Shown in pieces: positions 4,399 through 59,526 of a DNA stretch of 59,526 nt. The DNA lies in IMG/VR virus record IMGVR_UViG_3300037511_000322. One strand, written 5' to 3'. Source of the DNA: a virus. The notes under the pieces are model-generated. The model did no database searches, was not told the origin of the DNA, and saw only the letters and a list, made by a program, of their open reading frames with translations. Every line of letters begins with the position of its first letter. Positions within the stretch are counted from its first letter, which is position 1. A program made the position numbers and the translations under genes.

Positions 4399-4920
4399 CT
4401 AGCAGTAGTTACGTCGGTCGGTACCCGGGAGGGGGGACTGGGCGTTGAGTCGACCCATGGTGCAGTCCGGGCAGAGGTCGGCGTCACCCTCGATCGTGTT
4501 CCCGCAGCTGTCGTTCCAGCCCGGGCAACCACCCTCGTCGTTGCTGAACTCGTAGACCGTGGTGATGCGCGGGTGAGGACCTGGGGTCATCGGGTTGTAG
4601 CCCGGCATCATCTCCTCACGGTCAGCCTGGTCCTTCGCCTGGTCGATCATCAGTCGGATGCAGTCGTCGCAGACCGGGTCCTCCTCGATGTGGAGGGCCT
4701 TGACCACCGGCTTCTCCCCGCACTTCGTGCAGGGCACGTAGACTTCGCCGACCGGAGAGTGGAACGGGCAGTAGTGCTTGCCCCGGTAGGTCACTGTCGC
4801 CTCATTGGAGCCCCCGTTGTGGATCGGGGTGATGCCGCATCGGCCGCACTTGGTGCCGGCGGGCGGGAACCGCAGGTGGTCCAGGAGGTGTCGCGGGGTC
4901 AGCTGAATCGGGAGTTGCAT
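4399..4920 (-). CDS. Cys-rich zinc-finger protein
   Basis: Multiple CxxC pairs (CGRC, CTKC, CDDC, CPDC). The ATG at 4920 is 9 nt from GAAAGGA. An alternative ATG is at 4926. Confidence 0.65.
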   Translation of the reverse strand: MQLPIQLTPRHLLDHLRFPPAGTKCGRCGITPIHNGGSNEATVTYRGKHYCPFHSPVGEVYVPCTKCGEKPVVKALHIEEDPVCDDCIRLMIDQAKDQADREEMMPGYNPMTPGPHPRITTVYEFSNDEGGCPGWNDSCGNTIEGDADLCPDCTMGRLNAQSPLPGTDRRNYC

Positions 4921-4960
4921 GATCATCAGTCCTTTCTCGTTGTCGTGCGATTACGATGTA

Positions 4961-4995: not shown

Positions 4996-5607
4996 TCAGA
5001 TGCCCTTGCCGAGCGTGGCGCACCAGGCTTCGAAACTGATCGGGGCGTAGTACCCGTCGGTGTCACCGATACCGTCAGAGATATACCGACGGTAGGCCTT
5101 TCGCTGGGTCTCCAGCCTCTTCAGATCGTCGAGCATCCAAGTCTTGCGGTTGCCCTCCCGATCGACCAGAGTCACTTCGACACCCGAGCTGGGATAGATT
5201 ACCCTATCGACCCAGTAGTAATCCTGGTCGATGAAGTCGAGTACCTGACCGTTGTCAATCTCGTCCAGGTCAAGGCATCGTTCAGCGTCGTCCCGGGCTG
5301 AGTGGAGGGTGGAGATAGCGACCTCGTACCACCGCTTGGAGTACTCGGCAAATCCCTCCTCGACCGAAGTGTCATCAGCATTCTGATTGGCAGAAGCAAC
5401 ATGAGCCTCGCAGAACTTCGACGACTCGGTCTCCCATTCCTTCCGAGCAGTTTCCTGCTCCTGGTAGGGTCGGATATAAGTGTCGTGGTAGGCCTGGTTG
5501 TCAGCCTCGAACTTAGCCAGGTCAGCTGCTCGGGCAGCCTGGTTCTTACGGCATCGGGCTCGGGCAGCCTTGGTCTTGGGGTGAATGCAATCGCGGTGTG
5601 AAGTCAT
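4996..5607 (-). CDS. hypothetical protein, C-x-HP..T..AR..CR N-terminal motif family, apparently leaderless
   Basis: The promoter geometry sets the start at MTSHRDCIHPKTKAARARCRK. ANQNADDTSVEEGF is shared with 14025..14342. Confidence 0.65.
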   Translation of the reverse strand: MTSHRDCIHPKTKAARARCRKNQAARAADLAKFEADNQAYHDTYIRPYQEQETARKEWETESSKFCEAHVASANQNADDTSVEEGFAEYSKRWYEVAISTLHSARDDAERCLDLDEIDNGQVLDFIDQDYYWVDRVIYPSSGVEVTLVDREGNRKTWMLDDLKRLETQRKAYRRYISDGIGDTDGYYAPISFEAWCATLGKGI

Positions 5608-7358: not shown

Positions 7359-7628
7359 ATGCCACTCGAATCACCCCAAGAGATGCCCAAGGACATGGAT
7401 GAGCTGGATACCATGGTCGCCCGGGCATACAGTCAGGGTATCGACACCGGCAGAAAAGCCGGACGTAGTGATGCTATCGACGCCATCAAGAGGTTCTGGC
7501 GATCGGAATTCAACCTGACCAAGGGCCGTCGTCGTCGAGCTGACCCCGAAGACCCCAAGACTTCAGCAATCCTGGACATCTGGGAGCGGTTCAACAAGAA
7601 GCTGGAGGATGGTACACTGTGGCAGTAG
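7359..7628 (+). CDS. hypothetical protein (89 aa)
   Basis: GAGAAAGGA RBS. First gene after the divergent intergenic region. Confidence 0.6.
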   Translation: MPLESPQEMPKDMDELDTMVARAYSQGIDTGRKAGRSDAIDAIKRFWRSEFNLTKGRRRRADPEDPKTSAILDIWERFNKKLEDGTLWQ

Positions 7629-9700
7629 CACCGAAGCCGGCAGTCGATCTCAACAAAGCCCTGCGCATTATCTCGCGTGCGTGGGGTAAGCAGTCGGGGT
7701 ATTGCTTCTTCCCACACATCGATAGGGAAAAGCAGATCGAGACGGGGGAGCGCCGCGCTGGCTTCCATGAAAACCGAGCCTTCAAGTGGCCTCAGGAAAA
7801 GGCTGCCATCCTGGAACATATGGCCGAACACATCGGTCATGACCTGTACTGGTGTCCCAGTCTCTTCGAGACCCCAGACCGCCAAGCCGAAACTGCCATG
7901 GATGAGCATGCGCTCTGGGCAGATATGGATGAGGCTGACCCACGGATCCTCGAGGGCAACCAAGAGTTCAGGCCCACGGTAGCTTGGGAGTCCTCGCCCG
8001 GTCGATACCAGGCGCTTTGGCTCGGTAATCCCGAGATCGGAGACTTCCAGGGTGCGAGCTGGCCCGGCAATGAGAACCAGCGACTGACTTACTACCTCGG
8101 TGCTGACAAGTCTGGGTGGGATACTACTCAGCTGCTGCGTATTCCGGGCTGGCCAAACTGGAAGCCTGAATACCGGCGCAACGGTAAGCCTCGCATGGGC
8201 AAGCTCCTCTGGGAACGCGGCCCGATGTACGAGATGAGTGACTTCCAAGGCCTTCCCGAGGTCAAGGGCGCACTCACGATGGATAAGCTCGGCGAGGTCA
8301 TTGAGTCTGAGATCAATGCCATCGACCGAGCTAAGGTCATGACGCGGATAAAGCTGAAGCTCAATCAGCGTGCCCGCGATATGCTCTCTGCTCGACAGAT
8401 CAGCGGCGACCGCAGTGAGCAGCTGTGGTATCTCATCCGATGCCTGGCCGATGCTGGCTGCACGGTTCAGGAGATCGTGGCCGTCGTACGACCCTCGGTG
8501 TGGAACAAGTTCGAGGGACGGGCCGATGAGCTCAAGCGCCTCATCACCGAAGCGACGAAGGCTATCGATCAGCGCGATCCGGAAGTTACGGAAGCGATTG
8601 AGGAAGAACAGGCACCAAAGCCTCGCCCCCAACGACTCGCCGCCTTCCTCAAAGACGTCAAGCCGCCCAAGTGGCTGATCGATGGCATCGCCACGGAAGG
8701 CTCGGTTGGCTTCATCGCTGGCGCCCCCAAGTCCTTCAAGTCCTGGTGTGCCCTCGACATGGCGCTGAGTGTCGCCACTGGCAGCCTCTTTCTCGATTAC
8801 TTCCGAGTCATGAAGCCTGGCAGGGTCCTCTACATCCAGGAAGAGGACTCTGCGGTTACAGTCAAGAGCCGCACCAAGAAGATCTGGAAGGGCAAGAGCA
8901 CGGACAAGATGGTGCTGGATTCCGGCGTTGTCTACTGGGTACCCGGCTCCGATGAGGAGTTTGACCCCAACATCGATATCTACCTCATGGAAGGCTTCAC
9001 AGCCTCTGAGGGACACTGGCAGGAATGGCTCGACCAAACGCTGACCGAAGCTACTGCCGAGGACGCCCCCTATGTTCTTGTCATCGTCGACACTCTCATG
9101 AACGTAGCGGGTGATGTCGAAGAGAACAAGAGCCAGCAGATGACCACGAAGATCTTCAAGCCCATGAAGGTTCTCATGCGGAAGCACAACTGCGCTATGC
9201 GCTTCGTGCACCACATGGGCAAGGGCGGAGATGACAAGCGCGGTGGTCAGCGCATGCTGGGCGGTACGGCGAACCACGCATGGGCCGAGGACAGCCTCTA
9301 CATCAGCAGGGTAGAGAGCACCAAGGGCTTCACGGGTCAGATCAAGATGGAGTTCGAGTCCAAGTCCGCCCCCGGTGCTTACTACACCATCTCCGGCCTC
9401 GACAACCATGCCTGGACCCCCTACTTCGAACCCACCAAGCCCAAGGACGATCCCACACCAACGACGCCCGGGCGCAAGGTTCGCGACAAGCCCATGATGA
9501 GGGGTGACAAACACCCCATCGTGGAAATGCTCGAGCAGGGCGGCAGCTGGACTACCAAGGATATCGCCGAGCAGCTCAACCGCAACTACGCCAGTACCTA
9601 CAAAACGCTGCAAAGGCTCGAGGAGAAGGGTACCATCGCCCGCGCCGGCAAGGCCTGGCGAGCTACTGCCGAGGAGTCCGCGCCCGCGACGCGCGCATAA
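7619..9700 (+). CDS. AEP-type primase-polymerase fused to a RepA/AAA_25-type helicase, with a C-terminal winged helix
   Basis: 693 aa. N-terminal domain: ALWADMDEAD (D-x-D) and LLRIPGWPNWK (RxPG.N.K). Central domain: GAPKSFKSW (Walker A-like) and YVLVIVDTL (Walker B). Confidence 0.85.
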   Translation: MAVAPKPAVDLNKALRIISRAWGKQSGYCFFPHIDREKQIETGERRAGFHENRAFKWPQEKAAILEHMAEHIGHDLYWCPSLFETPDRQAETAMDEHALWADMDEADPRILEGNQEFRPTVAWESSPGRYQALWLGNPEIGDFQGASWPGNENQRLTYYLGADKSGWDTTQLLRIPGWPNWKPEYRRNGKPRMGKLLWERGPMYEMSDFQGLPEVKGALTMDKLGEVIESEINAIDRAKVMTRIKLKLNQRARDMLSARQISGDRSEQLWYLIRCLADAGCTVQEIVAVVRPSVWNKFEGRADELKRLITEATKAIDQRDPEVTEAIEEEQAPKPRPQRLAAFLKDVKPPKWLIDGIATEGSVGFIAGAPKSFKSWCALDMALSVATGSLFLDYFRVMKPGRVLYIQEEDSAVTVKSRTKKIWKGKSTDKMVLDSGVVYWVPGSDEEFDPNIDIYLMEGFTASEGHWQEWLDQTLTEATAEDAPYVLVIVDTLMNVAGDVEENKSQQMTTKIFKPMKVLMRKHNCAMRFVHHMGKGGDDKRGGQRMLGGTANHAWAEDSLYISRVESTKGFTGQIKMEFESKSAPGAYYTISGLDNHAWTPYFEPTKPKDDPTPTTPGRKVRDKPMMRGDKHPIVEMLEQGGSWTTKDIAEQLNRNYASTYKTLQRLEEKGTIARAGKAWRATAEESAPATRA

Positions 9701-47841: not shown

Positions 47842-47870
47842 TTGATTGGGTCCTCTCGGCATGATAGGGT
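47842..47870 (+). promoter_or_regulatory. sigma70-type promoter, near-leaderless
   Basis: TTGATT-N17-TAGGGT-N5-ATG(47876). Confidence 0.5.
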
Positions 47871-47875
47871 CAGCT

Positions 47876-49456
47876 ATGGAAACGGAATTCTTCGTCCCCG
47901 ACGCAGTCAAACATGGCTATGGGGGGATACATCGGGTTCGACGGACCTGGTATGGACGAAGGAAGGGCATGGCAACTAAGTACAAGTGGAAGACTCGACC
48001 TTACCACCATCAGGTGAAGGCGGTCAAGAAGCTGCTGAGCACGGGCTTCGGTGGAGCACTCCTGATGGCTCCTAGGACAGGCAAGACCAAGACGCTGATC
48101 GATTACGCATCGTGTCTCTACCTTGCCGGCAAAGTCCAGCGGGTACTGATCTTCTGCCCGCTCTCAGTCATCGGGGTGTGGGAACGAGAAATCGCCGCGC
48201 ACTGCCCCTTCGACTATCGAGTCACGGTCTGGGACAAGACTGCCCGCAAGAAGGGTATCCAGCTGCCGAGGATCGGTCGAGATATCCTCGACTTCGTGAT
48301 CATCAACTACGACGCGCTCTCCACACCTGGTGCTGTCGTGCGTGAGGATGACTACGGCAACAAGATCCGTTCTCGACGCCGTGGTGGTCGCTACGACATT
48401 CTAAAAGCGTTCGAGCGGTGGCAGCCGCATCTGATCGCCCTGGACGAGTCTCACCGCATCAAGTCGCCGACCGCGGTCAAGTCTCGGATGATGCATAAGT
48501 TGGGCAAGGTCGCGGACTACAGGGTCATCATGACCGGTACCGTTGTGACGAAGAAGAAGCGCATCTTCGACATCTGGTCACAGTGGCGGTTCTTGTACCC
48601 GGACCGATTCCCCATGACCTTCTCCGAGTTCAAAGCTACCTACGGCATCTGGCGTGATATGGGTGGCTGGTCCAAATGGATCCGCAATCAGAACGAGGAT
48701 GACCTCCATGCGTTGATTCACAACGATGCCTTCGCTATCCAGCGAGAGGATTGCTTCGATCTACCGCCTCGGCGCAACCAGATCATCCCCATCGAGCTGG
48801 ACGAGTCGGCTCCGTACTACGACCAGATGGCCAAGGAGATGGTAGCCAAGATCCACACGGGTGAGCTGACGGTCGCCTCGATCTCGCTGGTTCAGACGCT
48901 ACGCCTCCGACAGATCACATCTGGCCTCGCCAAGACGGAACCTTCGCCTGAGTTTCCCGAGGGTCGCCTTGTTCGTGTGGGTGGCGAGAAATACAACGTT
49001 ATGTTCGAGCTGCTGGCTGACCTATTCGAAGCGGGCGAGAAAGTCGTGGTGGGGGCTTTGTTCAAGGGTGATCTTGCCGCGGTCGAGCAGATGTGTACTA
49101 AGATGAAGGTTGACTGCTTCGTTATCAAGGGCGGCGTCAAGCGCCGAGATCGTGACACGGCAATCGACAGGTTTCGTAGGCACGAGGGCCCCGCATGCTT
49201 CGTTGCACAGCCTGCTGCGGCTGCGGAGGGTATCGATTTGTCAACCGCGTCAATCTGCATTTGGTACAGCCTGACGCCGAGCTATGTTCAGTACCAGCAA
49301 TTTGAGGATCGCATCGCTCTGTCCAAAATCGGTACGACGTACATGTACTTGATTGCCAAGGATACCGTCGATGAACTGCTCTACGAGACCCTACAGGAAG
49401 ACGGGGACGTCGCCAGGGCTATCATGCGTGCACCGGAACGTCTGTTGCGAGAATGA
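47876..49456 (+). CDS. SNF2-family (DEAD/H-like) helicase
   Basis: LLMAPRTGKTKT (motif I), LIALDESHRIKSP (DExH), and C-terminal helicase motifs (FVAQPAAAAEGIDLS). Confidence 0.85.
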   Translation: METEFFVPDAVKHGYGGIHRVRRTWYGRRKGMATKYKWKTRPYHHQVKAVKKLLSTGFGGALLMAPRTGKTKTLIDYASCLYLAGKVQRVLIFCPLSVIGVWEREIAAHCPFDYRVTVWDKTARKKGIQLPRIGRDILDFVIINYDALSTPGAVVREDDYGNKIRSRRRGGRYDILKAFERWQPHLIALDESHRIKSPTAVKSRMMHKLGKVADYRVIMTGTVVTKKKRIFDIWSQWRFLYPDRFPMTFSEFKATYGIWRDMGGWSKWIRNQNEDDLHALIHNDAFAIQREDCFDLPPRRNQIIPIELDESAPYYDQMAKEMVAKIHTGELTVASISLVQTLRLRQITSGLAKTEPSPEFPEGRLVRVGGEKYNVMFELLADLFEAGEKVVVGALFKGDLAAVEQMCTKMKVDCFVIKGGVKRRDRDTAIDRFRRHEGPACFVAQPAAAAEGIDLSTASICIWYSLTPSYVQYQQFEDRIALSKIGTTYMYLIAKDTVDELLYETLQEDGDVARAIMRAPERLLRE

Positions 49457-49540: not shown

Positions 49541-50170
49541 GTGATCATCATTGAGGGTCCCGATGGGAGTGGAAAATCCACTCTCGTGAACAAGCTGGCC
49601 CAGGAGCTCAGACTCCCAGTCGCCGACAAGGTTGTTGCCTCGGATACCACCGCCATGACTGACTTGGTGAAGTGGACTGAAGACAACGTCGCACGAGGGT
49701 TCCAGCCGACCATCTTCGACCGTCACCGGCTGATCTCGGAACCTATCTACGGCCCGATCCTGAAGCCTCGACAGGATCCCAGCTTCTGCGACCTGAGTTG
49801 GCTGTCCCAGCAGCTCTGGCTGTTCTACGGCTGCAAGCCGGTGATCATCTACTGCCTGCCTGACATCCGGACGGTACGTGCGAACGTGGCCCGAGAAGAC
49901 ACAGACAACTCGGTAGTCGCCAGCCGCATCGCTGCGATCTACGCCGCCTATGTCAACCGTGCCACCCTCGACTTCACTCGAGGTGTGGGGCGACTGTACA
50001 ACTACGAAACTACTCGGTTCGACGACATTGTCGGCTGGGTCAACTTCAAGCTCGACGGAAGGATTTCCACCGATGACCGAGTCCGCCTCCCGTTCCCTCG
50101 CACCGAAGGCATTCATTCCGGGACAGACGACGGAGGACGCCGCCCGGCAGCGCGCCGGTCTCTCCGCTGA
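49541..50170 (+). CDS. thymidylate-kinase-like dNMP kinase
   Basis: GTG start. IIIEGPDGSGKST P-loop and FDRHRLISEPIYG (DR(Y/H)..S motif). The 3' end overlaps the next gene by about 100 nt. Confidence 0.7.
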   Translation: MIIIEGPDGSGKSTLVNKLAQELRLPVADKVVASDTTAMTDLVKWTEDNVARGFQPTIFDRHRLISEPIYGPILKPRQDPSFCDLSWLSQQLWLFYGCKPVIIYCLPDIRTVRANVAREDTDNSVVASRIAAIYAAYVNRATLDFTRGVGRLYNYETTRFDDIVGWVNFKLDGRISTDDRVRLPFPRTEGIHSGTDDGGRRPAARRSLR

Positions 50171-50564
50171 GAAGCAGCCGGTGGTCAATGCTCTCCAGAT
50201 GATCTTCGAGGGCCAGCGACACCTCATGGCGAAGTACCACGACCGAGAGGCGGCGAACGGTTCGCCGGTGGTGGACGAGTCTCTGGAGGGTAATCTCGAC
50301 AGCCGCCAGGTTCAGGCTCGTATCCACGAGCTGTACGGCTACCTGACCCGCGAGCTGGCCGAGGCACTCCAGGAGCTCAAGGGCAAGCCCTGGAAGCTGA
50401 ACTTCGACCCGACCGACCGGGACGCCTTCGTCAATGAGATCGGCGATGCTTTCCACTTCTTCGTGGAGCTCTGCATCACGGCCGGCATGACCGCGGAGGA
50501 TCTGCACCGGGCCTATTTCCGCATGCACCAGAAGAACAACACCCGTCTCGCCGGCACCTACTGA
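50073..50564 (+). CDS. all-alpha NTP pyrophosphohydrolase (dimeric d(C/U)TPase / MazG-like)
   Basis: Start at MTESAS, after GGAAGGA. LTRELAEALQELKGKPWK and EIGDAFHFFVEL match the EXXE / EXXD helices of this superfamily. Confidence 0.6.
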   Translation: MTESASRSLAPKAFIPGQTTEDAARQRAGLSAEKQPVVNALQMIFEGQRHLMAKYHDREAANGSPVVDESLEGNLDSRQVQARIHELYGYLTRELAEALQELKGKPWKLNFDPTDRDAFVNEIGDAFHFFVELCITAGMTAEDLHRAYFRMHQKNNTRLAGTY

Positions 50565-50590
50565 CCAGCTCTACACCCAAGGGGGAAACA

Positions 50591-50743
50591 GTGTCGCGCC
50601 GAATCAGCTCCATACGGATGCAGCAAATCCGGGAGACTGCGCACACTGTCGGAGCGATTGCCGCCGCTACCTTTCTGTCTTTCATGGCAGTGGGGGCGGC
50701 GGCCTTCGCCGTTCTGATGGTTCACCTCAACGAGAAGATCTGA
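50591..50743 (+). CDS. 50-aa single-TM peptide (not in the ORF track)
   Basis: GTG start after AAGGGGGAAACA. VGAIAAATFLSFMAVGAAAFAVLMV. TGATG coupling to the next gene. Confidence 0.4.
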   Translation: MSRRISSIRMQQIRETAHTVGAIAAATFLSFMAVGAAAFAVLMVHLNEKI

Positions 50744-51777
50744 TGAGAAGTTACCGAGCAAGTACCATGACCGCCCTCCACGAGCAGATGATCAACTCGC
50801 TGGTCTGGGCGAAGGCCTCAGAGCTCGACGTCATTTCCAATGTCGATGTCCAGATCCACAATGTAATGGGCTACGCCGAGTCCATGGATTGGGAGATGGA
50901 CCTCAAGACCTTCTGGCTGACCAAGTCGAGATGGTCCATGATGGTCCGGCAATACCTGGACCCCGAACAGCTGCAAGCGTGGATCGAGCAATGCACGACG
51001 AAGATCGGGACCAAGGGCCGCGGGATCGCTGTTCTGCGCACTAACATCGTCAAGCCGAGAGGTGGGGCCGCGACGGGCCACAGCAACAAGGAGACTCGAC
51101 GCTGGGGCTCTTGCATGCTGACGCTGAGCTACAAGGCGAAACCGAAGCCACAGATCACTCTGCACTCGCGGACGTCCTACCTGGGCTACATTGGCGCTCT
51201 CGACCTGAGCGTGGCATGGATGGCCGGCAAGTACTTGGCCCGTGAGATGGGTATCAGGGTCGAAGACATTTCATTCCTCTGGTACAACGAGGCCATCCAG
51301 TGGCACAACTTCAAGTCGATGGCTTGGTTGCTGTGCAATCCCGACGATGAGCAGCGGCGAGTCTACCGTAAACTTCTCACCGCGGGACCCAGTAGGCTCG
51401 ATCCCGAGGACATGGATCTACTCAACACAGCCCCGGCACTCAGCATGACCAGGGACTGGTTGAAGAAGGTTCGCATCGAGGATCGCGACGGCAAGACTCT
51501 CGGCGACATGACCTACAACACCTACCGACGAATTCGTCGGCGGTGGCACACCGAGGTCCTGGGGTACGAGAAGGCCAAGACCTTCGAGGGCTGGTCCTAC
51601 TACAAGCAGGGGCCTCAGAAGGGGGAACAGAAGGAGTACTTCAAGGCATATCAGCCGCTGCCCTCAGTCATGATCAGTGACTGTGATTTCTCCCCGATCA
51701 AGATGCCCCTGGGGATCAAGTACGGGGGCGACTTCGTACCCGGCGCAGATGAGGACGATGATGACGACGACGAGTGA
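50743..51777 (+). CDS. hypothetical protein, possibly a divergent thymidylate-synthase-fold enzyme
   Basis: 344 aa. GRGIAVLRTN...RRWGSCMLTLSY...ITLHSRTSYLGY can be threaded by eye onto ThyA SRRIIVSAWN...PCH.FFQFY...LYQRSCDVFLG. Poly-Asp tail. The fold assignment is unverified. Confidence 0.4.
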   Translation: MRSYRASTMTALHEQMINSLVWAKASELDVISNVDVQIHNVMGYAESMDWEMDLKTFWLTKSRWSMMVRQYLDPEQLQAWIEQCTTKIGTKGRGIAVLRTNIVKPRGGAATGHSNKETRRWGSCMLTLSYKAKPKPQITLHSRTSYLGYIGALDLSVAWMAGKYLAREMGIRVEDISFLWYNEAIQWHNFKSMAWLLCNPDDEQRRVYRKLLTAGPSRLDPEDMDLLNTAPALSMTRDWLKKVRIEDRDGKTLGDMTYNTYRRIRRRWHTEVLGYEKAKTFEGWSYYKQGPQKGEQKEYFKAYQPLPSVMISDCDFSPIKMPLGIKYGGDFVPGADEDDDDDDE

Positions 51778-52030
51778 ACCCGATGAGCCACCACTCATCG
51801 ACGTGGGCAAGATCATGAGGCTGGAAGATCTGCCAGCTATTCAGGTTCAGGAGCCAAAGCCCAGGAAGCGATTCCTGCGCGTGGTTTTTCTGAACGGCAG
51901 TGAACGCTGGTACGAGCTCGACGACGAGGGCTGGCGCTTCGATGCCATGACCCGAGAGCTGGTCATCGCCAAGGGTGTGGGACGTAAGCACATCCCTCTC
52001 GACAACGTCGAATACTACAGTCCGGAGTAG
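51758..52030 (+). CDS. hypothetical protein (~90 aa)
   Basis: Overlaps the poly-Asp end of the upstream gene. The start is ambiguous (51749, 51758 or 51761). Confidence 0.45.
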   Translation: MMTTTSEPDEPPLIDVGKIMRLEDLPAIQVQEPKPRKRFLRVVFLNGSERWYELDDEGWRFDAMTRELVIAKGVGRKHIPLDNVEYYSPE

Positions 52031-52037
52031 GAAGACA

Positions 52038-52898
52038 GTGAAGGTCTACCAGAACATGGCCTTCGCCGACATGGTCGGGCAGATGTACCAGGACTTCCTG
52101 GGCGCTGCCCGGCCCGTCGACGTTGGGCAATGGCAAGGGCGCGACATCAAGGGCGATGCCTCAAAGGTCACTTGGGAAATCAGGGAAGCCGTCCTGCAGC
52201 TCGGGATGCCCGACTCGATCGAAGGGGCGCAGCGCGACATCTCGCCGAACCTGCCCTGGGCTGAGGATCACTTCCAGGAGCGAGTCGGGCGCAAGCCGCT
52301 CAACCCCCCACCCTCCAGTGGCTGGTGGCCGTTCGCCCAGGCGGGCCACGTCGAGCACGTGAACGAGAAGGGGATGTTCTCCCACACATACCCTGAGCGC
52401 TTCTGGCCCAAGCACGCAGGTGACTGGGAAGCGAGTCTGGGTCAGCTCGGTGCACACGGCGAGTGGTGCGAAACCAAGGGGATCCGGTTCAAGTATGGCG
52501 ACCTCGACGATGTGGTCTGGCGGTTGATCAAGAACCCCATGACGAGGCAGGCTTACCTGCCGGTCTGGTTTCCTGAGGACACTGGGGCGCCCGACGGCGA
52601 ACGAGTGCCCTGCACCATCGGGTACCACTTCATGATCCGCGAGGGACGACTCCACGTCAGCTACACCATACGAGCCTGCGACTTCATGCGCCACTTCAAG
52701 GACGATGTCTACATGGCGATTCGTCTGGGGCAGTGGGTTCGGGATCAGCTCCCGCACGAGGGCAGCTTGACCATGGGTGAGCTGACCATGCACATCGGCT
52801 CGTTCCACATCTTCGCCGGCGATCGACCTATGGTTAAGCACCTCGCCCATCAGTACGTCAGCGGCAAGAACCGACGGCTCCTGGAGGCTCTCCGATGA
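52038..52898 (+). CDS. thymidylate synthase family protein (candidate pyrimidine-C5 hydroxymethylase or methylase)
   Basis: GTG start after GGAAGA. IKNPMTRQAYLPVWFPED and VPCTIGYHFMIREGRLHVSYTIRACDFMRHFKDD align with ThyA NDPDSRRIIVSAWN and [34 protein letters not shown]. The catalytic Cys context is conserved. Confidence 0.75.
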   Translation: MKVYQNMAFADMVGQMYQDFLGAARPVDVGQWQGRDIKGDASKVTWEIREAVLQLGMPDSIEGAQRDISPNLPWAEDHFQERVGRKPLNPPPSSGWWPFAQAGHVEHVNEKGMFSHTYPERFWPKHAGDWEASLGQLGAHGEWCETKGIRFKYGDLDDVVWRLIKNPMTRQAYLPVWFPEDTGAPDGERVPCTIGYHFMIREGRLHVSYTIRACDFMRHFKDDVYMAIRLGQWVRDQLPHEGSLTMGELTMHIGSFHIFAGDRPMVKHLAHQYVSGKNRRLLEALR

Positions 52899-53410
52899 CG
52901 CTTCCCCTTCAGTGGGCATGGGACCCAGGCAAGAGACCCTCGACCGACTGGGTGTTGATGCAGACTGCGTTCGCCTGGTCGACCAAGAGCACATGTCCGA
53001 GAGCCCAGGTCGGAGCCGTAGTCTCGAGAGACGGGCGCAGTTTCTCTAGCGGGTACAATGGGGCACCAAAGGGCATGAAGCACTGCGACCATGGGTGCAA
53101 CTGCAAGCCGGATCCCTTCGAGCCGATCCTGCTGAACAGCGATCACATGGAGGGCTGCAACAGTCAGAAGCCCTGCAAGAACGTGGTTCATGCCGAGGCA
53201 AACGCGCTCGCCTTCGCGGCTCGATATGGTGTGGGAACTGATGGCGCCGAGATCCACTGCACCCGTATCCCTTGCTTGAACTGTGCTGGACTGATCATCA
53301 ATGCCGGCATAGCTCGCGTGGTTTGGTACGAGGAGCACAGGGACATGGAAGGTCTCCTGCGCCTGGGCGAGGCAGGTCTGGAAGTGATAAGGTGGAGCTA
53401 TGAGGGGTAA
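52895..53410 (+). CDS. dCMP deaminase
   Basis: VHAEANA and PCLNCA zinc-binding motifs. ATGA overlap with the upstream gene. Confidence 0.85.
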   Translation: MTLPLQWAWDPGKRPSTDWVLMQTAFAWSTKSTCPRAQVGAVVSRDGRSFSSGYNGAPKGMKHCDHGCNCKPDPFEPILLNSDHMEGCNSQKPCKNVVHAEANALAFAARYGVGTDGAEIHCTRIPCLNCAGLIINAGIARVVWYEEHRDMEGLLRLGEAGLEVIRWSYEG

Positions 53411-55970
53411 TCCAAACTGCAGTGACTGCAAGCTGCATCGTAATGCAGCCGCTGTCTGTGTCATGGGTGACGGTCCGCGCGATGCTGACATCATGGTTAT
53501 CGGCAAGATGCCGAACTCGGACAAGAATCAGACCGCGCTGGAACAGCAGTTGGAGGAGGTTGGCCTCGACCCGAAGCGGGTCTACTATACTAGTGCTCTG
53601 AAGTGCGTGAACTGGGAGGATAGCGCCAGTAACGCCCATGTCAAGGCTTGCCGGCAATATCTCGAACAGGAGATCGCCGAGGTCAAGCCCACACACATCC
53701 TCGCTCTCGGTAACGAAGGCTTGAACGCCGCGGCAGGTAAGTCCGGCATCACGAAGTACCGCGGTCAGCTCTTCGAGAAGGACGGCTACACCGTCATCCC
53801 GACCATCTCCCCGATGGCGGTGAACCGTAACCCCGGCCAGCGACCTGGCTACATGGCTGATCTGCGGCTCTTCGCGAACACCTACCTGGGCAAGGCTACC
53901 GGGGTCAAGGTTCCGAAGTGGGCTTTCATCGACACTAAGACAAAGCTGAAGAAGCTCAAGACGATTCTCGAGCAGACGCATCTGATCAGCTTCGACATCG
54001 AGACCACGGTTCACAACCTCGGCGAGTTCGACCCGAACGCCAAGATCATCACGATGGCGGGTACTTGCCTAGTTACCGAGCTCGACGCTCAGACTGGTAA
54101 GGAGCGCGACAGGATCTTCGGGTTCTGCCTGCCCCTGTACCACCCTGAGTCGCCGTTCCAGACGACCTGGAAGTCGGTGCTGAAGTTCCTTAAGCCGGCT
54201 CTCGAGGGAATTCCGAAGGGGGTCGCTCAGAACGGCAAGTTCGACTGCCGATGGCTGACTCACTTCGGTGTCAACATGAACCACACCTTCGATACCATGC
54301 TGGCGATCCACCTGCTCAACGAGAACATCGCCAAGGGTCTGAAGCCGAACGCCCAGGCGAGGCTGGGAGTGCCACCTTGGGGCATCGACACCAAGGATCT
54401 GCTAAGCGAGGCCCTCGCCGAGGTCGCTGAGTACAACTTCCTCGACACATACTACACCTATCTCCTGTACAAGCAGCTGAAGCAGGAGCTGATCGAGCAG
54501 CCTAGGTTGCTGCGGATCATGACGAAGTTGTACATGCCCGCGAGCCGCGATCTGGTGCCTACGGAACGCCGAGGAGTCTGGCTGGATATCGACCGGCTGC
54601 GTGAGCGAAAGCCCAAGGTCGAGGAGAAACTCCGCAGCATCGAAGACCAGTTGAAGGAGTACCTCCCCGACCCCGACTCGGATGACTGGCCCATGGACTC
54701 CAAGGGTCGGAAGAAGCTCGAGGTCAACTTCAACGCAAGTCGCTTCGCGCGGTGGTTCCTCTTCGAATGGATGGCGCTGCCGGTCCTCGAACGAGGCAAG
54801 GAGAAGCCCGATGGTTCACCAGGCGACCCGAGCATGGCGGAGGATGTCCTCCTTCATCTACAGAAGGATCATCCACACAAGGTGATCGATCTGATGCTCG
54901 AGCGAGTGTCCTGGCAGAAGAACCTCAGCTCGTTCTTCAACGCCTACGAAGTCATGTATGACGATGAGCACAGGGTGCACACGACCTTCAAGCTCGCCGG
55001 CACGGTGACTGGTCGACTCAGCTCGGGCAAGGACACCACCGACAAGATCTCGGGCAAGGCGAATCTTCGCGGCGTCAATCTTCAGCAGGTCCCTCGAGAT
55101 CCGCTGATCCGAGGTATGTTCGGGGCACCCTACGGCTGGTCGTTCGTCGAGGCAGACTACAGCCAGATCGAGCTAAGGATCGCCGCGTTCATCGCCAATG
55201 AGCGACACATGATTGCCCTGTACCAGCAGGGCGCGGACATCCACATGACAACTGCGATGGCGGTGACGGGTCTGCCGAAGGCCAAGGTCACGAAGGAGAT
55301 TCGCAAGAAGGTGGGTAAGCCGGTTAACTTCGGTTTTCTCTACGGTATGGGCTGGCGGAAGTTCATTGAGACCGCGTTCAACAACTACGGCGCGGTATTC
55401 AATGAGCAGGAAGCTCAGGCCTACCGACGAGCTTACTTCGAGCTCTTCCCCGACCTGCCTCGATGGCACGAGCGTCAGCGCCGACTTGTCAGGCGATACG
55501 GAAGGGTGCAGAGCCCCTTGGGAAGAATCAGGCACCTGCCCGATATTCACTCGCCCGAGAAGGGGGTCCAGGCTGAAGCGGAGCGACAGGCGATCAACTC
55601 GCCCGTGCAGGGCTTTGCCAGTGACATGGCTCTTCTCAGCATGACCATCATCAACCAGAAGTTCCGAGAGGCGGGCATCGCTGGCCACTGTCTCGGCCTA
55701 GTACACGACGCCATCAACTTCGAGATCCGAGATGATGAGCTCGAGCGAGCCCTGCCCATCATCAAGGATACGATGGAAGATCCGGTACCCCTACGCAAGA
55801 AGTTCGGGACAATCCTCACTATCCCCATCGTGGCTGACCTCAAGGTGGGACGACACTGGGGCGATGCCCACGAGGTAGAGGATCCCAATGTCATCTACGA
55901 CCCCGACCTCCTCAACCACTGGTTGTCGGAGAATCACCCCTCGTACCAGCATCTGTCGAAAGTAGCCTAG
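53400..55970 (+). CDS. family A DNA polymerase with 3'-5' exonuclease and an N-terminal family-4 UDG-like domain
   Basis: 856 aa. N-terminus: CSDC...IMVIGKMPN...ALKC...KAC...TISPMAVNRNP (UDG4 scaffold). ISFDIETT (Exo I). EADYSQIELRIAAF (motif A), KPVNFGFLYGM (motif B), LVHDAINFE (motif C). Confidence 0.9.
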   Translation: MRGNPNCSDCKLHRNAAAVCVMGDGPRDADIMVIGKMPNSDKNQTALEQQLEEVGLDPKRVYYTSALKCVNWEDSASNAHVKACRQYLEQEIAEVKPTHILALGNEGLNAAAGKSGITKYRGQLFEKDGYTVIPTISPMAVNRNPGQRPGYMADLRLFANTYLGKATGVKVPKWAFIDTKTKLKKLKTILEQTHLISFDIETTVHNLGEFDPNAKIITMAGTCLVTELDAQTGKERDRIFGFCLPLYHPESPFQTTWKSVLKFLKPALEGIPKGVAQNGKFDCRWLTHFGVNMNHTFDTMLAIHLLNENIAKGLKPNAQARLGVPPWGIDTKDLLSEALAEVAEYNFLDTYYTYLLYKQLKQELIEQPRLLRIMTKLYMPASRDLVPTERRGVWLDIDRLRERKPKVEEKLRSIEDQLKEYLPDPDSDDWPMDSKGRKKLEVNFNASRFARWFLFEWMALPVLERGKEKPDGSPGDPSMAEDVLLHLQKDHPHKVIDLMLERVSWQKNLSSFFNAYEVMYDDEHRVHTTFKLAGTVTGRLSSGKDTTDKISGKANLRGVNLQQVPRDPLIRGMFGAPYGWSFVEADYSQIELRIAAFIANERHMIALYQQGADIHMTTAMAVTGLPKAKVTKEIRKKVGKPVNFGFLYGMGWRKFIETAFNNYGAVFNEQEAQAYRRAYFELFPDLPRWHERQRRLVRRYGRVQSPLGRIRHLPDIHSPEKGVQAEAERQAINSPVQGFASDMALLSMTIINQKFREAGIAGHCLGLVHDAINFEIRDDELERALPIIKDTMEDPVPLRKKFGTILTIPIVADLKVGRHWGDAHEVEDPNVIYDPDLLNHWLSENHPSYQHLSKVA

Positions 55971-55973
55971 TGA

Positions 55974-56002
55974 TTGCTTATCGGTGCGGGAGATGGTATA
56001 CT
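55974..56002 (+). promoter_or_regulatory. sigma70-type promoter for 56022..56252
   Basis: TTGCTT-N17-TATACT, followed by an AAGGAGG RBS. Confidence 0.55.
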
Positions 56003-56021
56003 TATGCCAAGGAGGTGAACC

Positions 56022-56252
56022 ATGTCCAAGCGCCATACCCGCACCGGTAACAAGCGGCTTTGCCCTCAGCACAAGAAGAAGATTCTTCGTGACCGAGTTG
56101 AGGCTGAGCTACTGCTAGAGCATATCCAACTGCGATCTCGACGTGAGATTCATGATGAGAAGCGAGCTCACCCGTGTGAGTTCGGCTTCGGCTGGCATCT
56201 CACGTCTGAGGACGCCCGTAACAACGAGCCGGGTTATCGTCATTCCGCTTAA
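56022..56252 (+). CDS. small basic protein with a C...GWHLTS motif (76 aa)
   Basis: HPCEFGFGWHLTS. I recall this motif from small phage proteins of unknown function. Confidence 0.55.
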   Translation: MSKRHTRTGNKRLCPQHKKKILRDRVEAELLLEHIQLRSRREIHDEKRAHPCEFGFGWHLTSEDARNNEPGYRHSA

Positions 56253-56254
56253 GA

Positions 56255-56284
56255 TTGACTAGTAATCTCCCCGGCCGATAGCAT
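56255..56284 (+). promoter_or_regulatory. sigma70-type promoter for 56314..57369
   Basis: TTGACT-N18-TAGCAT. Confidence 0.5.
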
Positions 56285-56313
56285 CGTCTTACGACATTGA
56301 CCGAGGAGATAAG

Positions 56314-57369
56314 GTGCCAGGCCTTTACTATGACGAGAGTGTTGGCAAATACGTTGTCACGCACTCCATGATCAAGTCCTTCCGTGGCTGTCCACGACAA
56401 ACGCTGTACAAGCAAGTGGACCGGCTCAAGCCGAGGATCATCGGGCAGCCACTGAAGCGCGGTACCTGGATGCACTACCTTCTCGAGGAGCACCACGGCG
56501 GTCGAGACTGGAAGCTCATGCACAAGAAGCTGAGTGCCCAGTTCGCCGAGCTCATGGATGAGGAGAGGGATCACTATGGTGATCTGCCAACGGAATGCTA
56601 CCGCATGATGGAAGCCTACGTCTGGCACTACGCGAATGACCCCTGGAAGGTCCACGAGGTCGAGTTCACGCTGGAAGCGGAATTCCCAGATGGCACCCTG
56701 TACCGGGGCAAGGTCGATGCTCTGATCGAGAACCAATTCGGTCTCTGGATCGCCGACCATAAGACACACGGCAACTTGCCCGATCATACCTTCAGGTTGC
56801 TCGATGCTCAGTCGGCTTTGTATCTCTGGGCAGCCAAGAAGATGGGGCTTCCCGTACAGGGCTTCATCTGGAATTACTTGCGGGCCAAGACACCCTCCAC
56901 ACCCGAGATGCTGAAGAATGGTAGCCGGCTCTCGAAGCGGCTTGGGGAGACTGACTACCTCACCTTCACTCGCGAAGTGCAGCGGCTCAAGCGAGAAGAG
57001 GGGTATCGGATTCGAGCTGAGGATGTCGAGATGCAGCGTCGACTTCGTGCTCAGCGATACGTGCCCGGCGAACCTCAGCTCTCCCCATTCTTCCGCCGCG
57101 ATGTCCTGGAGAAGGACGACGACATGCTGAAGCGAGTCGCCGGCGAGGCCTACCACACGGCGAAGCGGATGGCAAAGTATCCATTCCATCAGCGTGACGT
57201 CGTAGAGCGCAATGTCGACCCGTTCAAGTGCAGTCGATTCTGCAGCTACCGTGATCTCTGCACTATCGAACTGATGGGGGGTAACACCCGCACATTGATG
57301 AAGAACTACAAGGTCGGCGATCCCCAGGATTACTATCACGACAGGGCGGGTGAGCTCCGTGGCGCATGA
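56314..57369 (+). CDS. Cas4/RecB-like PD-(D/E)xK exonuclease with a Cys cluster
   Basis: GTG start after GAGGAGA. GKVDALIE...LWIADHKT (D...D.K). Cys at FRGCPRQ plus CSRFCSYRDLC gives the 1+3 Cys pattern of Cas4-type nucleases. Confidence 0.8.
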   Translation: MPGLYYDESVGKYVVTHSMIKSFRGCPRQTLYKQVDRLKPRIIGQPLKRGTWMHYLLEEHHGGRDWKLMHKKLSAQFAELMDEERDHYGDLPTECYRMMEAYVWHYANDPWKVHEVEFTLEAEFPDGTLYRGKVDALIENQFGLWIADHKTHGNLPDHTFRLLDAQSALYLWAAKKMGLPVQGFIWNYLRAKTPSTPEMLKNGSRLSKRLGETDYLTFTREVQRLKREEGYRIRAEDVEMQRRLRAQRYVPGEPQLSPFFRRDVLEKDDDMLKRVAGEAYHTAKRMAKYPFHQRDVVERNVDPFKCSRFCSYRDLCTIELMGGNTRTLMKNYKVGDPQDYYHDRAGELRGA

Positions 57370-57469
57370 CTTCCGAGAAGAGCTGGCTTGGGCAGCTGGC
57401 ATCTTCGATGGAGAAGGTCACATCGGTGCACTTCAGATCGCTCGCCCCGGAGAACTACGAGGTGCGTGA
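57359..57469 (+). pseudogene. remnant of a LAGLIDADG homing endonuclease (N-terminal motif only)
   Basis: The frame reads VAHDFREELAWAAGIFDGEGHIGALQIARPGELRGA*. LAWAAGIFDGEGHIG is a textbook LAGLIDADG helix, but the ORF stops about 25 aa later. Confidence 0.4.
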
Positions 57470-57599
57470 TGCCCAAGACCCCCATATGCCCGCGGTGTGA
57501 CGACGACGCATCTGACGAGCCCAAGGACCACAACCCACCCTGCAGGATCCGAGGCTGTAACTCCCAGTCTCACTCGGCCTGCGAACACTGAGAGGGAAC

Positions 57600-58409
57600 A
57601 TGGCAGAGAAGGACTACAACGCCATCGCCCGGAAGCGCATCCAGCGACCGGCCAACATCAAGCGGCTGCCCAAGCTGCACATCTACGCACGACAGAAGAA
57701 GGGCAAGACCACCTTCAGCGTCAGTGCAGGTGTGGAGAAGACGCTCGTCCTCGACCCGGAGCATGGGACTGACCTCATGCAGTCCAAGAACCCCCATGTC
57801 TGGCATATCGAGCGATGGGAGGACATGGATGAGGCTTACAACTACCTCCGTTCGGGTGACCATCCCTACGAGTGGGTCTCGGTCGACGGTCTCACCAAAC
57901 TCAGCAACATGGCGCTGAAGTACACCATGCGACTGCAGGAAGAACGATCCATCGACCGGATCCCTGGTCAGGTTCAGCAGAGGGACTACGGCCGCGCTGG
58001 CGAGGTCATGAAGACCATGCTGACCAACTTCCACAATCTCCCCCAGGGCGTCGTCTTCACCAGCCAGGAGCGGATGCAGGAGGTGGTCGACTCCGAGGAA
58101 GACGAGGATGTCGAGACCGAGGGGGCTGAGTTCGTCCCCGATCTGCCCAAGGGGGTCAGGGGCTATGTGAACTCCCTGGTCGACGTGATCGGGCGACTCT
58201 ATGTTGCCAAGATCGAGCATCCTCGGGATCCCGAGAAGATGCTCGCCCAGCGTCGACTCTGGATCGGAGAGTCACTCAAGTACGATACCGGATACCGATC
58301 GGACTTCACTCTACCCGACATGGTGAAGGCCCCCTCCATTCCGAAGCTGGTAAGTCTCATGCAGACCGGTCAGCTCCCAGTCCGGGCCGCCAAGAAGGCT
58401 GCGGCCTAA
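57600..58409 (+). CDS. RecA-like ATPase (AAA_24 / Sak4-like)
   Basis: LHIYARQKKGKTTF (Walker A) and VSVDGLTKL (Walker B-like). It is followed by a DUF669-like gene, the usual partner. Confidence 0.75.
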   Translation: MAEKDYNAIARKRIQRPANIKRLPKLHIYARQKKGKTTFSVSAGVEKTLVLDPEHGTDLMQSKNPHVWHIERWEDMDEAYNYLRSGDHPYEWVSVDGLTKLSNMALKYTMRLQEERSIDRIPGQVQQRDYGRAGEVMKTMLTNFHNLPQGVVFTSQERMQEVVDSEEDEDVETEGAEFVPDLPKGVRGYVNSLVDVIGRLYVAKIEHPRDPEKMLAQRRLWIGESLKYDTGYRSDFTLPDMVKAPSIPKLVSLMQTGQLPVRAAKKAAA

Positions 58410-58513: not shown

Positions 58514-59197
58514 ATGGCTACTGCTGCCGCTAAGGCCGCAACCGCAGTTCTCGACTTCTCCGGGGTCAAGGATCGCAGCGAATCCGGCATCAACAAGAAG
58601 CGGGTGCCCGCCGGTGACTACCTGGCGAAGGTGGCCCGGGTCGAGGACCGTCCGGTCAAGGACACCAAGGAACCCCAGTGGATGTACGTCATCTCGCTGG
58701 AGTCGGTGCGGGGCCGTGCCTACCCGTACTACTGCAAGCTCGAGGCGAACCAGCTCTGGAAGCTGCGCAACCTGTTCCTCGCCTGCGGTGTCGCGATCCC
58801 GAAGAAGAAGGTCCGGCTCGACCCGAACAAGATCGTCGGCAAGTCGCTCGGCGTGACCATGGAGGACGACGAGTACGAGGGCAAGCTCCAGTCGGTCATC
58901 GCCGAGGTCTTCCCCGCGTCGGAGCTGAACGAGGACAACCCGGGCAGCGACCCCGACGACGAGGACGAGGAGGACCAGGAGGACGAGGACCAGGAGCCCG
59001 AGGACTCCGACGAGGAGGAAGAGGAGGAAGAGGAGGAGGAAGAGGAGGAAGAGGAGGAACCCGAGCCGGCGCCCCGTCGACGTGCCCCGGCCAAGAAGGC
59101 GGCTGCCTCATCCAAGGCTCGCATCCCCGGCCAGCGCAAGGCCGAGCCCGAGGTGACCGACGACGAGCTGGACGAGCTCGACATCGACGATATCTGA
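58514..59197 (+). CDS. DUF669-like ssDNA-binding protein with a poly-Glu tail
   Basis: LDFSGVKD...VPAGDYLAKVARVE...LWKLRNLFLACGV...GKSLGVTMEDDEYEGK matches the DUF669 pattern as I recall it. The C-terminus has 16 consecutive Glu. Confidence 0.6.
   Translation: MATAAAKAATAVLDFSGVKDRSESGINKKRVPAGDYLAKVARVEDRPVKDTKEPQWMYVISLESVRGRAYPYYCKLEANQLWKLRNLFLACGVAIPKKKVRLDPNKIVGKSLGVTMEDDEYEGKLQSVIAEVFPASELNEDNPGSDPDDEDEEDQEDEDQEPEDSDEEEEEEEEEEEEEEEEPEPAPRRRAPAKKAAASSKARIPGQRKAEPEVTDDELDELDIDDI
59012..59059 (+). repeat. GAG/GAA trinucleotide tract encoding E16
   Basis: gag gag gaa units read directly. Lies inside 58514..59197. Confidence 0.9.
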
Positions 59198-59249
59198 TTC
59201 CCGGGCGAGCGATCGTCTTCAAAATCTCACCCCCCTCCCGAGCTCATCG

Positions 59250-59279
59250 TTGACGTCTCATAGGCCGAGATGAGATGAT
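59250..59279 (+). promoter_or_regulatory. possible promoter for the VRR-NUC operon (across the circular junction)
   Basis: TTGACG-N18-GATGAT. Confidence 0.4.
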
Positions 59280-59349
59280 TCACTTAGTTCGACCGCGGGA
59301 ATTTATCCTTGAGCTCGGGGGAGCGCACACACCGCGGTCAGCAAAACCT

Positions 59350-59405
59350 GGGCGGCCCGACTTACCTAACTCTCCTCGGTCAAAGGATAGATAGTCGGGC
59401 CGCCC
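59350..59405 (+). repeat. 13-bp perfect inverted repeat in the 5' UTR of the VRR-NUC gene
   Basis: GGGCGGCCCGACT-N30-AGTCGGGCCGCCC. The right arm spans the junction (it corresponds to window bases 1-6). Confidence 0.8.
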
Positions 59406-59526
59406 TTCTCTGTAGAGGGCTGGTAATGACAACACAACGAGAATCCGCGATCTCTCGAGGCATCATCACCGAGCTTCGTCAACGGGGAGTCTTCGCCTTC
59501 AAGATCCATGGTAGTGCCCTGATGAT
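59400..59526. repeat. Exact 127-bp terminal overlap, copy 2
   Basis: Identical to 1-127. It duplicates the RBS and first 101 nt of the VRR-NUC gene. Confidence 0.95.

Follow-up and report, generated by a model that had tools for sequence, protein, structure and literature searches.

We investigated the DNA polymerase gene at 53400..55970 of the viral record IMGVR_UViG_3300037511_000322, a stretch of 59,526 nucleotides (nt) hereafter called the window, and found that its N-terminal domain, of the type of the uracil-DNA glycosylases (UDGs) of family 4, has had all four side-chain determinants of uracil excision replaced or deleted: the motif A Glu, the loop bearing the Phe, the Asn, and the motif B His. 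Because both the catalytic and the uracil-recognition set are lost, the domain, judged from its sequence, is very unlikely to act as a conventional uracil glycosylase. On balance, and by analogy with the published structures of phiLo and YerA41 polymerases and with models of N4 polymerase, we favor a non-catalytic pseudo-enzyme of UDG fold within the replicase, presumed to carry an iron-sulfur (Fe-S) cluster, that may serve on the 5' template path as a guide, wedge, processivity, or docking element.

The ATG at 53400 is the most upstream start possible for the polymerase open reading frame (ORF); the gene shares its first 11 nt with the end of the dCMP deaminase gene, stop codon included, and is preceded closely by a GGTGGAG ribosome-binding site. 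Pfam profiles matched the protein at residues 23-148 (UDG, PF03167; E = 6e-17), 176-364 (DNA_pol_A_exo1), and 441-822 (DNA_pol_A; E = 3.5e-74). With the three domains in one chain, and the exonuclease and polymerase motifs intact, the product is a UDG-PolA fusion, laid out as follows:

53400..55970 (+): complete gene of the UDG-like/3'-5' exonuclease/family A polymerase fusion, 856 amino acids (aa) in one polypeptide
53400..53909 (+): family-4 UDG-like domain, predicted to be catalytically dead (residues 1-170)
53925..54491 (+): 3'-5' exonuclease domain, with D199-I-E201, D282, and Y345/D349 intact
54720..55865 (+): polymerase domain, with DYSQIELR (D586), R635/K640/F644/Y648, and H769-D770 intact

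Polymerase motif C (55701-55712) reads VHDA, vs. VHDE in Klenow, Bst, and T7; the majority consensus of 137 aligned homologues is also VHDA, with H769 nearly invariant and D770 invariant.

When residues 1-200 were compared with all PDB sequences (phmmer), the best match was Thermus thermophilus UDGA (1ui0, E = 1.7e-12). Thermotoga TM0511, mycobacterial UdgX, and a Sulfolobus family-4 UDG came next (E ~1e-8), whereas the family-5 UDGB 2d3y gave no significant match (E = 1.7, 11.5 bits). The domain is therefore family-4-like and not family-5-like. An original prediction had assigned the N-terminal ~190 aa to UDG family 4 and proposed alignment with families 4 and 5 as a check; the PF03167 and 1ui0 matches and the outcome of that comparison uphold the assignment, and the 1ui0 alignment produced neither of the results named as fatal to the prediction (conserved catalytic residues, or a domain that is not UDG-like). 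Residues were paired with 1ui0 by the HMMER alignment, in agreement with two independent MAFFT alignments, and the coordinates of the motifs were confirmed by translation:

53502..53516 (+): degenerate motif A GKMPN (G35-N39), aligned with GEGPG of 1ui0 (family consensus GE(A/G)PG)
53517..53537 (+): shortened loop after motif A, 7 residues vs. 17 (10-residue deletion)
53589..53606 (+): T64-S65-A-L-K-C69, in which the Asn of 'TN(I/V)VKC' is Ser65
53709..53765 (+): LGNE...SGITKYRG loops, which every degenerate actinophage version conserves
53808..53834 (+): degenerate motif B SPMAVNRNP (S137-P145), aligned with HPAYLLRNP (consensus HP(S/A)xxxR)

Lys36 replaces the catalytic Glu of motif A and Ser137 the catalytic His of motif B, where R143 is kept; both motifs, including the loss of the His, had been read in exactly this way before. 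Two losses go beyond that earlier reading. The 17-residue UDGA segment after motif A ('EEEDKTGRPFVGKAGQL') is represented by 7 residues in the window protein, the 10-residue deletion taking out 'GRPFVGKAGQ', i.e., the G-x-P-F-x-G-x-x-G stretch, and the Asn has become Ser65. We take the Phe of the deleted loop to be the one that stacks on uracil, and the Asn to be the reader of the uracil face, as in family-4 structures. Against TIGR00758, the NCBIfam model of family-4 UDGs, the window domain scored 63.5 bits vs. a cutoff of 125.3, and the intact fused domain of phage MW202455 scored 185.3.

To place these losses among fused domains, we compared residues 1-185 exhaustively (HMMER) with 1.84 billion cluster representatives, since a word-indexed homologue search with the domain alone had returned 10 fragments only. 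The comparison gave 4813 matches, the best 150 of which were mostly proteins of ~800 aa, i.e., UDG-PolA fusions. Among 87 full-length fused representatives, all four catalytic features were kept in 55 and the motif B His was lost in 18. R143 was present in 80 of 97 aligned N-termini (the 87 fused representatives, seven phage polymerases, the query, and two free-standing UDGs).

The predicted Fe-S ligands, by contrast, all remain, and are located as follows:

53418..53429 (+): C7-S-D-C10, first two predicted [4Fe-4S] ligands, aligned with C-T-A-C of 1ui0
53595..53606 (+): C69, third predicted ligand, in ALKC, aligned with the Cys of IVKC in UDGA
53643..53651 (+): K-A-C84, fourth predicted ligand, aligned with the Cys of AKIC in UDGA

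C69 and C84 are invariant, and C7 and C10 nearly so, in the 137 homologues. All four cysteines occur in 85 of the 87 fused full-length representatives (the other two are gapped at both N-terminal cysteines), and 17 of the 18 fused representatives that have lost the motif B His retain all four. That the four cysteines are kept had been proposed before and agrees with the 1ui0 alignment, although the Thermus N-terminal motif, given then as CRLC, is actually C-T-A-C. From this pattern of sequence conservation, the cysteines probably still hold a structural [4Fe-4S] cluster. A fifth cysteine, C20 (53457-53459), typifies the fused family: 82 of the 97 aligned N-termini have it, and the free-standing Thermus and Thermotoga UDGs have Val instead. 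In Shrew gp79 and Triscuit gp70, polymerases of two related actinophages, Ala stands where the fourth Cys would be, and the residue before it is His ('DHA' and 'EHA'). UdgX has been reported with His in place of one Cys ligand, so that a 3Cys-1His cluster is conceivable, by analogy, in these two polymerases.

The degenerate state characterizes a whole clade. A search with the full protein returned at least 120 relatives (57-91% identity), all with the same three Pfam domains, many on contigs of ~59-60 kb, and one recorded from a Streptomyces culture. Among 120 of them, motif A was always [GS][KR]M[PA]N-like; the post-motif-A loop had 7 residues and motif B began with SP in 120/120; the former Asn site varied (Q/S/A/H/T); and the four cysteines were present in every relative with a complete N-terminus. 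Mean identity to the query over the 120 relatives was 61% in the UDG-like domain, 61% in the exonuclease domain, and 75% in the palm and fingers. The ratio of nonsynonymous to synonymous substitution (dN/dS, Nei-Gojobori method, six pairwise comparisons of the window gene and three relatives available as DNA: L016, L017, and L018) was, as a rough estimate, 0.03-0.14 in the UDG-like domain and 0.06-0.15 in the other domains. The UDG-like domain is clearly under purifying selection as strong as that on the exonuclease and polymerase domains, and is not drifting; selection of this strength on it points to a structural or DNA-handling role. A structural or base-reading module had been suggested originally: the dead pocket and the low dN/dS agree with its structural half, and the loss of the pocket speaks against base reading.

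The protein is predicted, with confidence, to fold as a rigid whole. AlphaFold2 with the 137-sequence alignment gave a mean predicted local distance difference test (pLDDT) of 94.3 and a predicted template modelling score (pTM) of 0.90, and this model replaced a single-sequence one with a pLDDT of 34. Its N-terminal part (pLDDT 82-98) has the beta-alpha-beta alternation of the UDG fold. Foldseek aligned the full model with Bst and Klenow polymerases in the PDB (TMt 0.86); the 50 PDB matches listed comprised only Klenow, Bst, and Taq fragments, with no UDG-domain match and neither phiLo nor YerA41 polymerase among them. As a whole chain, the fold matched the Triscuit polymerase (TM 0.92) and an N4-like polymerase (TM 0.76). 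The pTM and these TM values would be compatible with a fixed placement of the UDG-like domain between the exonuclease and the polymerase/fingers domains.

Among GenBank phages, the domain was found by tblastn in only 41 records, and nearly all annotated copies lie inside a DNA polymerase gene. Phage polymerases can be arranged in a series of increasing decay of this domain:

Stage 1, phage MW202455: UDG domain fully intact; polymerase gene preceded at a short distance by a DNA ligase gene
Stage 2, SPO1-like JL: motif A QENPY; Phe and His kept
Stage 3, Pseudomonas PMBT14 and Serratia Serbin: GD.PN; His retained, but neither Phe nor Asn
Stage 4, the window clade and Streptomyces phage KimJongPhill: dead; four Cys kept
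Stage 5, Curtobacterium Shrew and Microbacterium Triscuit: dead; fourth Cys replaced by His-Ala
Stage 6, Gordonia Troje, Mycobacterium JacoRen57, and Muddy: domain without its N-terminal half and without any of the Cys

The sister phages Shrew and Triscuit have a different motif A (TNRKS), and Troje, JacoRen57, and Muddy still carry the LGNEAL, SGIMKxRG, RNPSQ, and AD.R motifs. Since remnants of the Muddy type keep loops outside the pocket, the part of the domain that is retained is not the pocket. The actinophages Shrew, Triscuit/Huwbert, and KimJongPhill/Zuko have 'DNA polymerase I' orthologues that are 50-54% identical to the window protein, and Troje, JacoRen57, and Muddy more distant ones (44-48%), all within the same gene cassette; the product names and notes of the polymerases in the actinophage records fetched make no mention of a UDG-like domain. 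The polymerase gene starts of KimJongPhill (L003 ~7900-8055), JacoRen57 (L010 ~5040-5124), and Muddy (L011 ~4860-4926) seem to be annotated too far downstream. In MW202455, the one relative with this cassette whose UDG domain is fully intact, one small ORF separates the polymerase gene from the DNA ligase gene upstream of it (L007 4706-5587), a placement that matches the published co-occurrence of active UDG-PolAs with ligase.

Such a series might be read as that of a functionless remnant, decaying and tolerated through its fusion to an essential enzyme, with one Cys already lost in Shrew and Triscuit and half of the domain in Muddy. We regard this as extremely improbable for the window protein, where dN/dS of the domain is equal to or below that of the catalytic domains, its identity equals that of the exonuclease domain, the cysteines are invariant, and the predicted fold is confident.

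The fusion had been treated as unusual in the original prediction, but the architecture is already published, inactive versions included. Czernecki et al. 2023 (PMC10201439) found the UDG catalytic residues unconserved in the N4-like cluster #17 and conserved in SPO1, SP-10, and SP-15, obtained models that hold the UDG domain at a set place, between exonuclease and polymerase, and proposed a processivity role for the inactive UDG domains of N4-like PolAs. Missoury et al. 2025 (bioRxiv 10.1101/2025.03.26.645540) presented cryo-electron microscopy structures of the phiLo and YerA41 polymerases, in which dU in the template is excised ~5 nt ahead of the polymerase site; in phiLo, the catalytic residues are E53, P55, and H178, and K161, N177, F181, and R185 contact the template backbone. 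They also reported that active UDG-PolAs co-occur with ligase and PolX. The texts of both studies mention neither the Fe-S cluster nor the actinophage clade, and a literature search on actinophage UDG-polymerases found nothing specific. The window polymerase is an independently degenerated actinophage lineage of the published UDG-PolA type and not a new system.

N4 gp39 (cluster #17) likewise combines an N-terminal family-4 UDG-like domain with exonuclease and PolA domains, but is 24% identical to the window protein over the polymerase core only; its UDG-like domain, barely detected by profile (13.8 bits), lacks all four Fe-S cysteines that the window clade keeps, and its relatives infect Proteobacteria rather than Actinobacteria. 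We rejected membership in the N4-like cluster on the core-only identity and the missing cysteines. The window polymerase is closer to the intact MW202455 enzyme, with which it shares 37% identity over its full length, than to N4 gp39; its catalytic loss is therefore independent of the N4 lineage.

The SP15-like and SPO1-like enzymes (phiLo, YerA41, and SP-15; SPO1, SP-10, and Shanette/JL) have the same domain order as the window protein, in genomes that, as here, encode a dCMP/dCTP deaminase, a thymidylate synthase (TS) homologue, and a dUTPase, and the four cysteines are present in phiLo too. Unlike the window protein, they keep E/P/H and excise template dU. SP15-like enzymes are also longer (1100-1300 aa vs. 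856 aa), with Inserts 1 and 2 and a C-terminal domain of ~80 aa, and only residues 522-816 of the window protein match the phiLo polymerase; with its length and degenerate motifs, the window protein does not belong to the SP15-like PolAs. Whereas SP15-like enzymes co-occur with ligase and PolX, no ligase, PolX, or apurinic/apyrimidinic (AP) endonuclease was found in the window by tblastn with the MW202455 ligase or by Pfam scans of 27 of its ORFs, and their absence among the screened ORFs fits an absence of excision. The free-standing family-4 UDGs (1ui0, TM0511) and UdgX are homologous in fold and share the 'ITKxRG' and '...RNP' loops with the window domain, but they are not fused to a replicase and the family-4 UDGs lack C20.

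In an alignment with phiLo gp158, the phiLo residues E53, P55, and H178 fall on K36, P38, and S137, respectively; the counterpart of the K160/K161 loop is the K119/R121 loop of the window protein, and that of R184/R185 is R143/N144. The loops that survive in every degenerate lineage thus correspond to those that contact DNA in phiLo, which is the strongest, if comparative, argument for a role on the template. Under the interpretation we favor, the N-terminal 170 residues would be a family-4 UDG fold turned pseudo-enzyme within a phage replicase, with its cysteines holding a structural [4Fe-4S] cluster. The domain would adjoin the fingers and exonuclease domains, as in the published UDG-PolA structures and models, and its retained basic loops (K119/R121, R143) would touch the single-stranded 5' template ahead of the active site, so that it might act as template guide, fork wedge, processivity element, or docking surface without removing bases. 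We speculate that excision may be dispensable because an adjacent dUTPase-like enzyme and host repair control dUTP, and possibly because the phage replaces cytosine by a 5-modified form.

Several observations weigh against this interpretation. The phiLo contacts K161 and R185 are one residue off the conserved R121 and R143 in both loops. With dS of ~1-2, near saturation in several pairs, the dN/dS ratios are rough. Strong purifying selection, together with the polar residues invariant in the clade (N39, N105-E106, and K/R36), is also what a new site for catalysis or ligand binding would show. UDG families 2 and 5 have activity although they lack the canonical acid of motif A or His of motif B.

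Some of these points would suit a glycosylase with a rebuilt active site and another specificity, e.g., for a canonical pyrimidine in an otherwise modified genome: the very low dN/dS, the residues invariant in the clade, the precedent of families 2 and 5 working without the family-4 residues, and a neighboring Asp177-type TS homologue (described below) that suggests modified cytosine. The variability of UDG motifs has been discussed previously (PMC4787834). We nevertheless judge a rebuilt glycosylase unlikely, given that the 10-residue deletion takes away a pocket wall, that close relatives differ from one another at the Asn site and at three of the five motif A positions, that motif A differs in Shrew and Triscuit and the whole motif A half is absent from the Muddy type, that no ligase, PolX, or AP endonuclease was seen among the screened ORFs, and that the TIGR00758 score is half of the cutoff.

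The surviving surface might alternatively be a platform on which a helicase-primase, a single-stranded DNA-binding protein, or another replisome factor docks, rather than a guide for DNA. Poxvirus D4 has an essential replication role that is independent of catalysis. Poxvirus D4/E4 likewise uses a UDG fold as a structural or processivity part of a viral replicase, on the template side, but this UDG belongs to family 1, works in trans, retains catalytic competence, and serves a B-family polymerase, so that the two are analogous in function alone. Missoury et al. 2025 cite the binding of a UDG fold to a viral replicase. Within the clade, the conserved surface motifs LGNE and RNPGQRPGY.ADLRLF are unrelated to the pocket and survive in Muddy-type remnants. 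No partner was identified, however, and the loops with the conserved basic residues make contact with DNA in phiLo; we hold docking in place of DNA guiding to be possible but rather unlikely, and the two roles are not mutually exclusive.

A non-excising sensor that reads ahead for uracil, or for a modified or unmodified template pyrimidine, and stalls or licenses synthesis, in the manner of archaeal PolB or UdgX, is in our estimation quite unlikely. The phiLo UDG site does read the template ~5 nt ahead of the polymerase site, and UdgX is a family-4 fold that binds without turnover, but every determinant of base recognition is lost or variable in the window clade. The earlier suggestion that the domain senses or excludes uracil or a canonical pyrimidine is likewise not supported, the Phe-bearing pocket wall being deleted, both the Asn site and the motif A loop variable, and the whole N-terminal half of the domain lost in the more degenerate Muddy and Troje.

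The pseudo-enzyme is encoded within a conserved set of genes, as follows:

49541-58409 (+): nine-gene replication/pyrimidine cassette, with loci L001-L003, L005-L007, and L009-L011 as relatives
49541..53410 (+): upstream pyrimidine cassette, in the same gene order in nine named phages
49541-50170 (+): P-loop (d)NMP-kinase-like gene
within 49950-50564 (+): dUTPase_2/MazG-like gene
50743-51777 (+): phrog_13667 gene, 344 aa
51975-52898 (+): Asp177-type TS homologue
52895-53410 (+): dCMP deaminase

The shared order is helicase/recombinase, P-loop (d)NMP kinase, MazG/dUTPase_2-like pyrophosphatase, phrog_13667, TS homologue, dCMP deaminase (in most phages), UDG-PolA, Cas4-like nuclease, and RecA-like (AAA_24) ATPase. 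It recurs in Shrew, Triscuit, KimJongPhill, Troje, JacoRen57, Muddy, PMBT14, Serbin, and MW202455, i.e., in phages of Actinobacteria, Pseudomonas, and Serratia and in an uncultured phage from spring water, so the adjacency of the fusion to a pyrimidine cluster, pointed out before, holds across phyla.

The TS homologue is divergent and not a canonical ThyA (Pfam, 26.7 bits), with the catalytic Cys kept; in Triscuit, it occurs alongside a normal ThyA. In all nine aligned cassette TS orthologues, Muddy gp46 included, the equivalent of E. coli N177 is Asp, and the equivalent of H147 is Thr or Ser (9/9; Thr in the window). Exactly these two positions separate cytosine-modified from unmodified viral contigs in MetaGPA (PMC8670742), and the Asp177-type signature has been reported for cytosine-modifying TS homologues (T4 dCMP hydroxymethylase, TS N229D). 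By the MetaGPA result, the Asp177/Thr147 signature suggests that the phage makes a 5-modified dCMP (5-methyl- or 5-hydroxymethyl-) rather than dTMP. We rejected the strict rule that catalytic loss tracks the Asp177-type TS; because MW202455 combines this TS type with an intact UDG, the TS type alone does not explain the dead UDG.

An excision-dead Fe-S module, reading ahead on the template and adapted to the DNA chemistry of the phage itself, might still tell modified from unmodified or uracil-containing template, or couple the redox state of its cluster to synthesis, so that only phage DNA is licensed; the TS homologue, dCMP deaminase, NTP pyrophosphatase, and dNMP kinase would then, speculatively, jointly make the 5-modified pyrimidine. 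We consider this very improbable, but, if true, it would mean that a glycosylase fold had taken on a new regulatory task within a replicase of family A.

The phrog_13667 gene has the best DNA-level conservation of the window relative to phage Shrew. The core of its protein, 'GSCML...LHSRTSYLGY..LD', is invariant, and the tail is poly-Asp/Glu; the protein had no Pfam or NCBIfam match and, in the PDB, only a 14-bit chance match (JetB, E = 0.12), and its family profile had no match in the PDB. The gene that takes its place in the cassettes of PMBT14, Serbin, and MW202455 is a homologue (hhalign 87%, E = 3.7e-6), which one record labels 'pyrimidine hmase synthase'. The idea, formed by eye, that it is a second protein of TS fold was dropped when hhalign to the TS-like family gave a probability of 0.1%.

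Elsewhere in the window, an Hjc-like resolvase (27-371) and an Rv2179c-like exonuclease (371-1000) continue the order that in L016, Shrew, Triscuit, and KimJongPhill follows the AAA_24 gene and the ORF at 58514-59197. As gene order thus runs across the window ends (58514-59526 and 1-1000), the window is apparently a circularly permuted complete genome of ~59.5 kb. The gene at 7619-9700 (+) encodes a protein of 693 aa that joins an AAA_25 (DnaB/RecA-like) ATPase to a RepB-type primase domain at the N terminus and a winged-helix/MarR-like domain at the C terminus; it is likely the primase-helicase partner of the polymerase. A SNF2 helicase is encoded at 47846-49456.

These results do not overturn the current understanding of UDG-PolA polymerases, and the mechanism stays inferred. 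They add to this group a large and mostly uncultured actinophage lineage, of at least 120 protein clusters. Such genes should not be named uracil-DNA glycosylases, as is done in some pipelines. The recurrent retention of the Fe-S ligands after catalytic death and the natural decay series reaching the Muddy polymerase are modestly new. The series amounts to a set of natural "deletion mutants", from which it can be seen what the polymerase really needs of the domain. Glycosylase chemistry has been lost repeatedly, yet the Fe-S cysteines are kept in 17 of 18 such cluster representatives, which argues that the fold and its presumed cluster serve replication apart from uracil repair.

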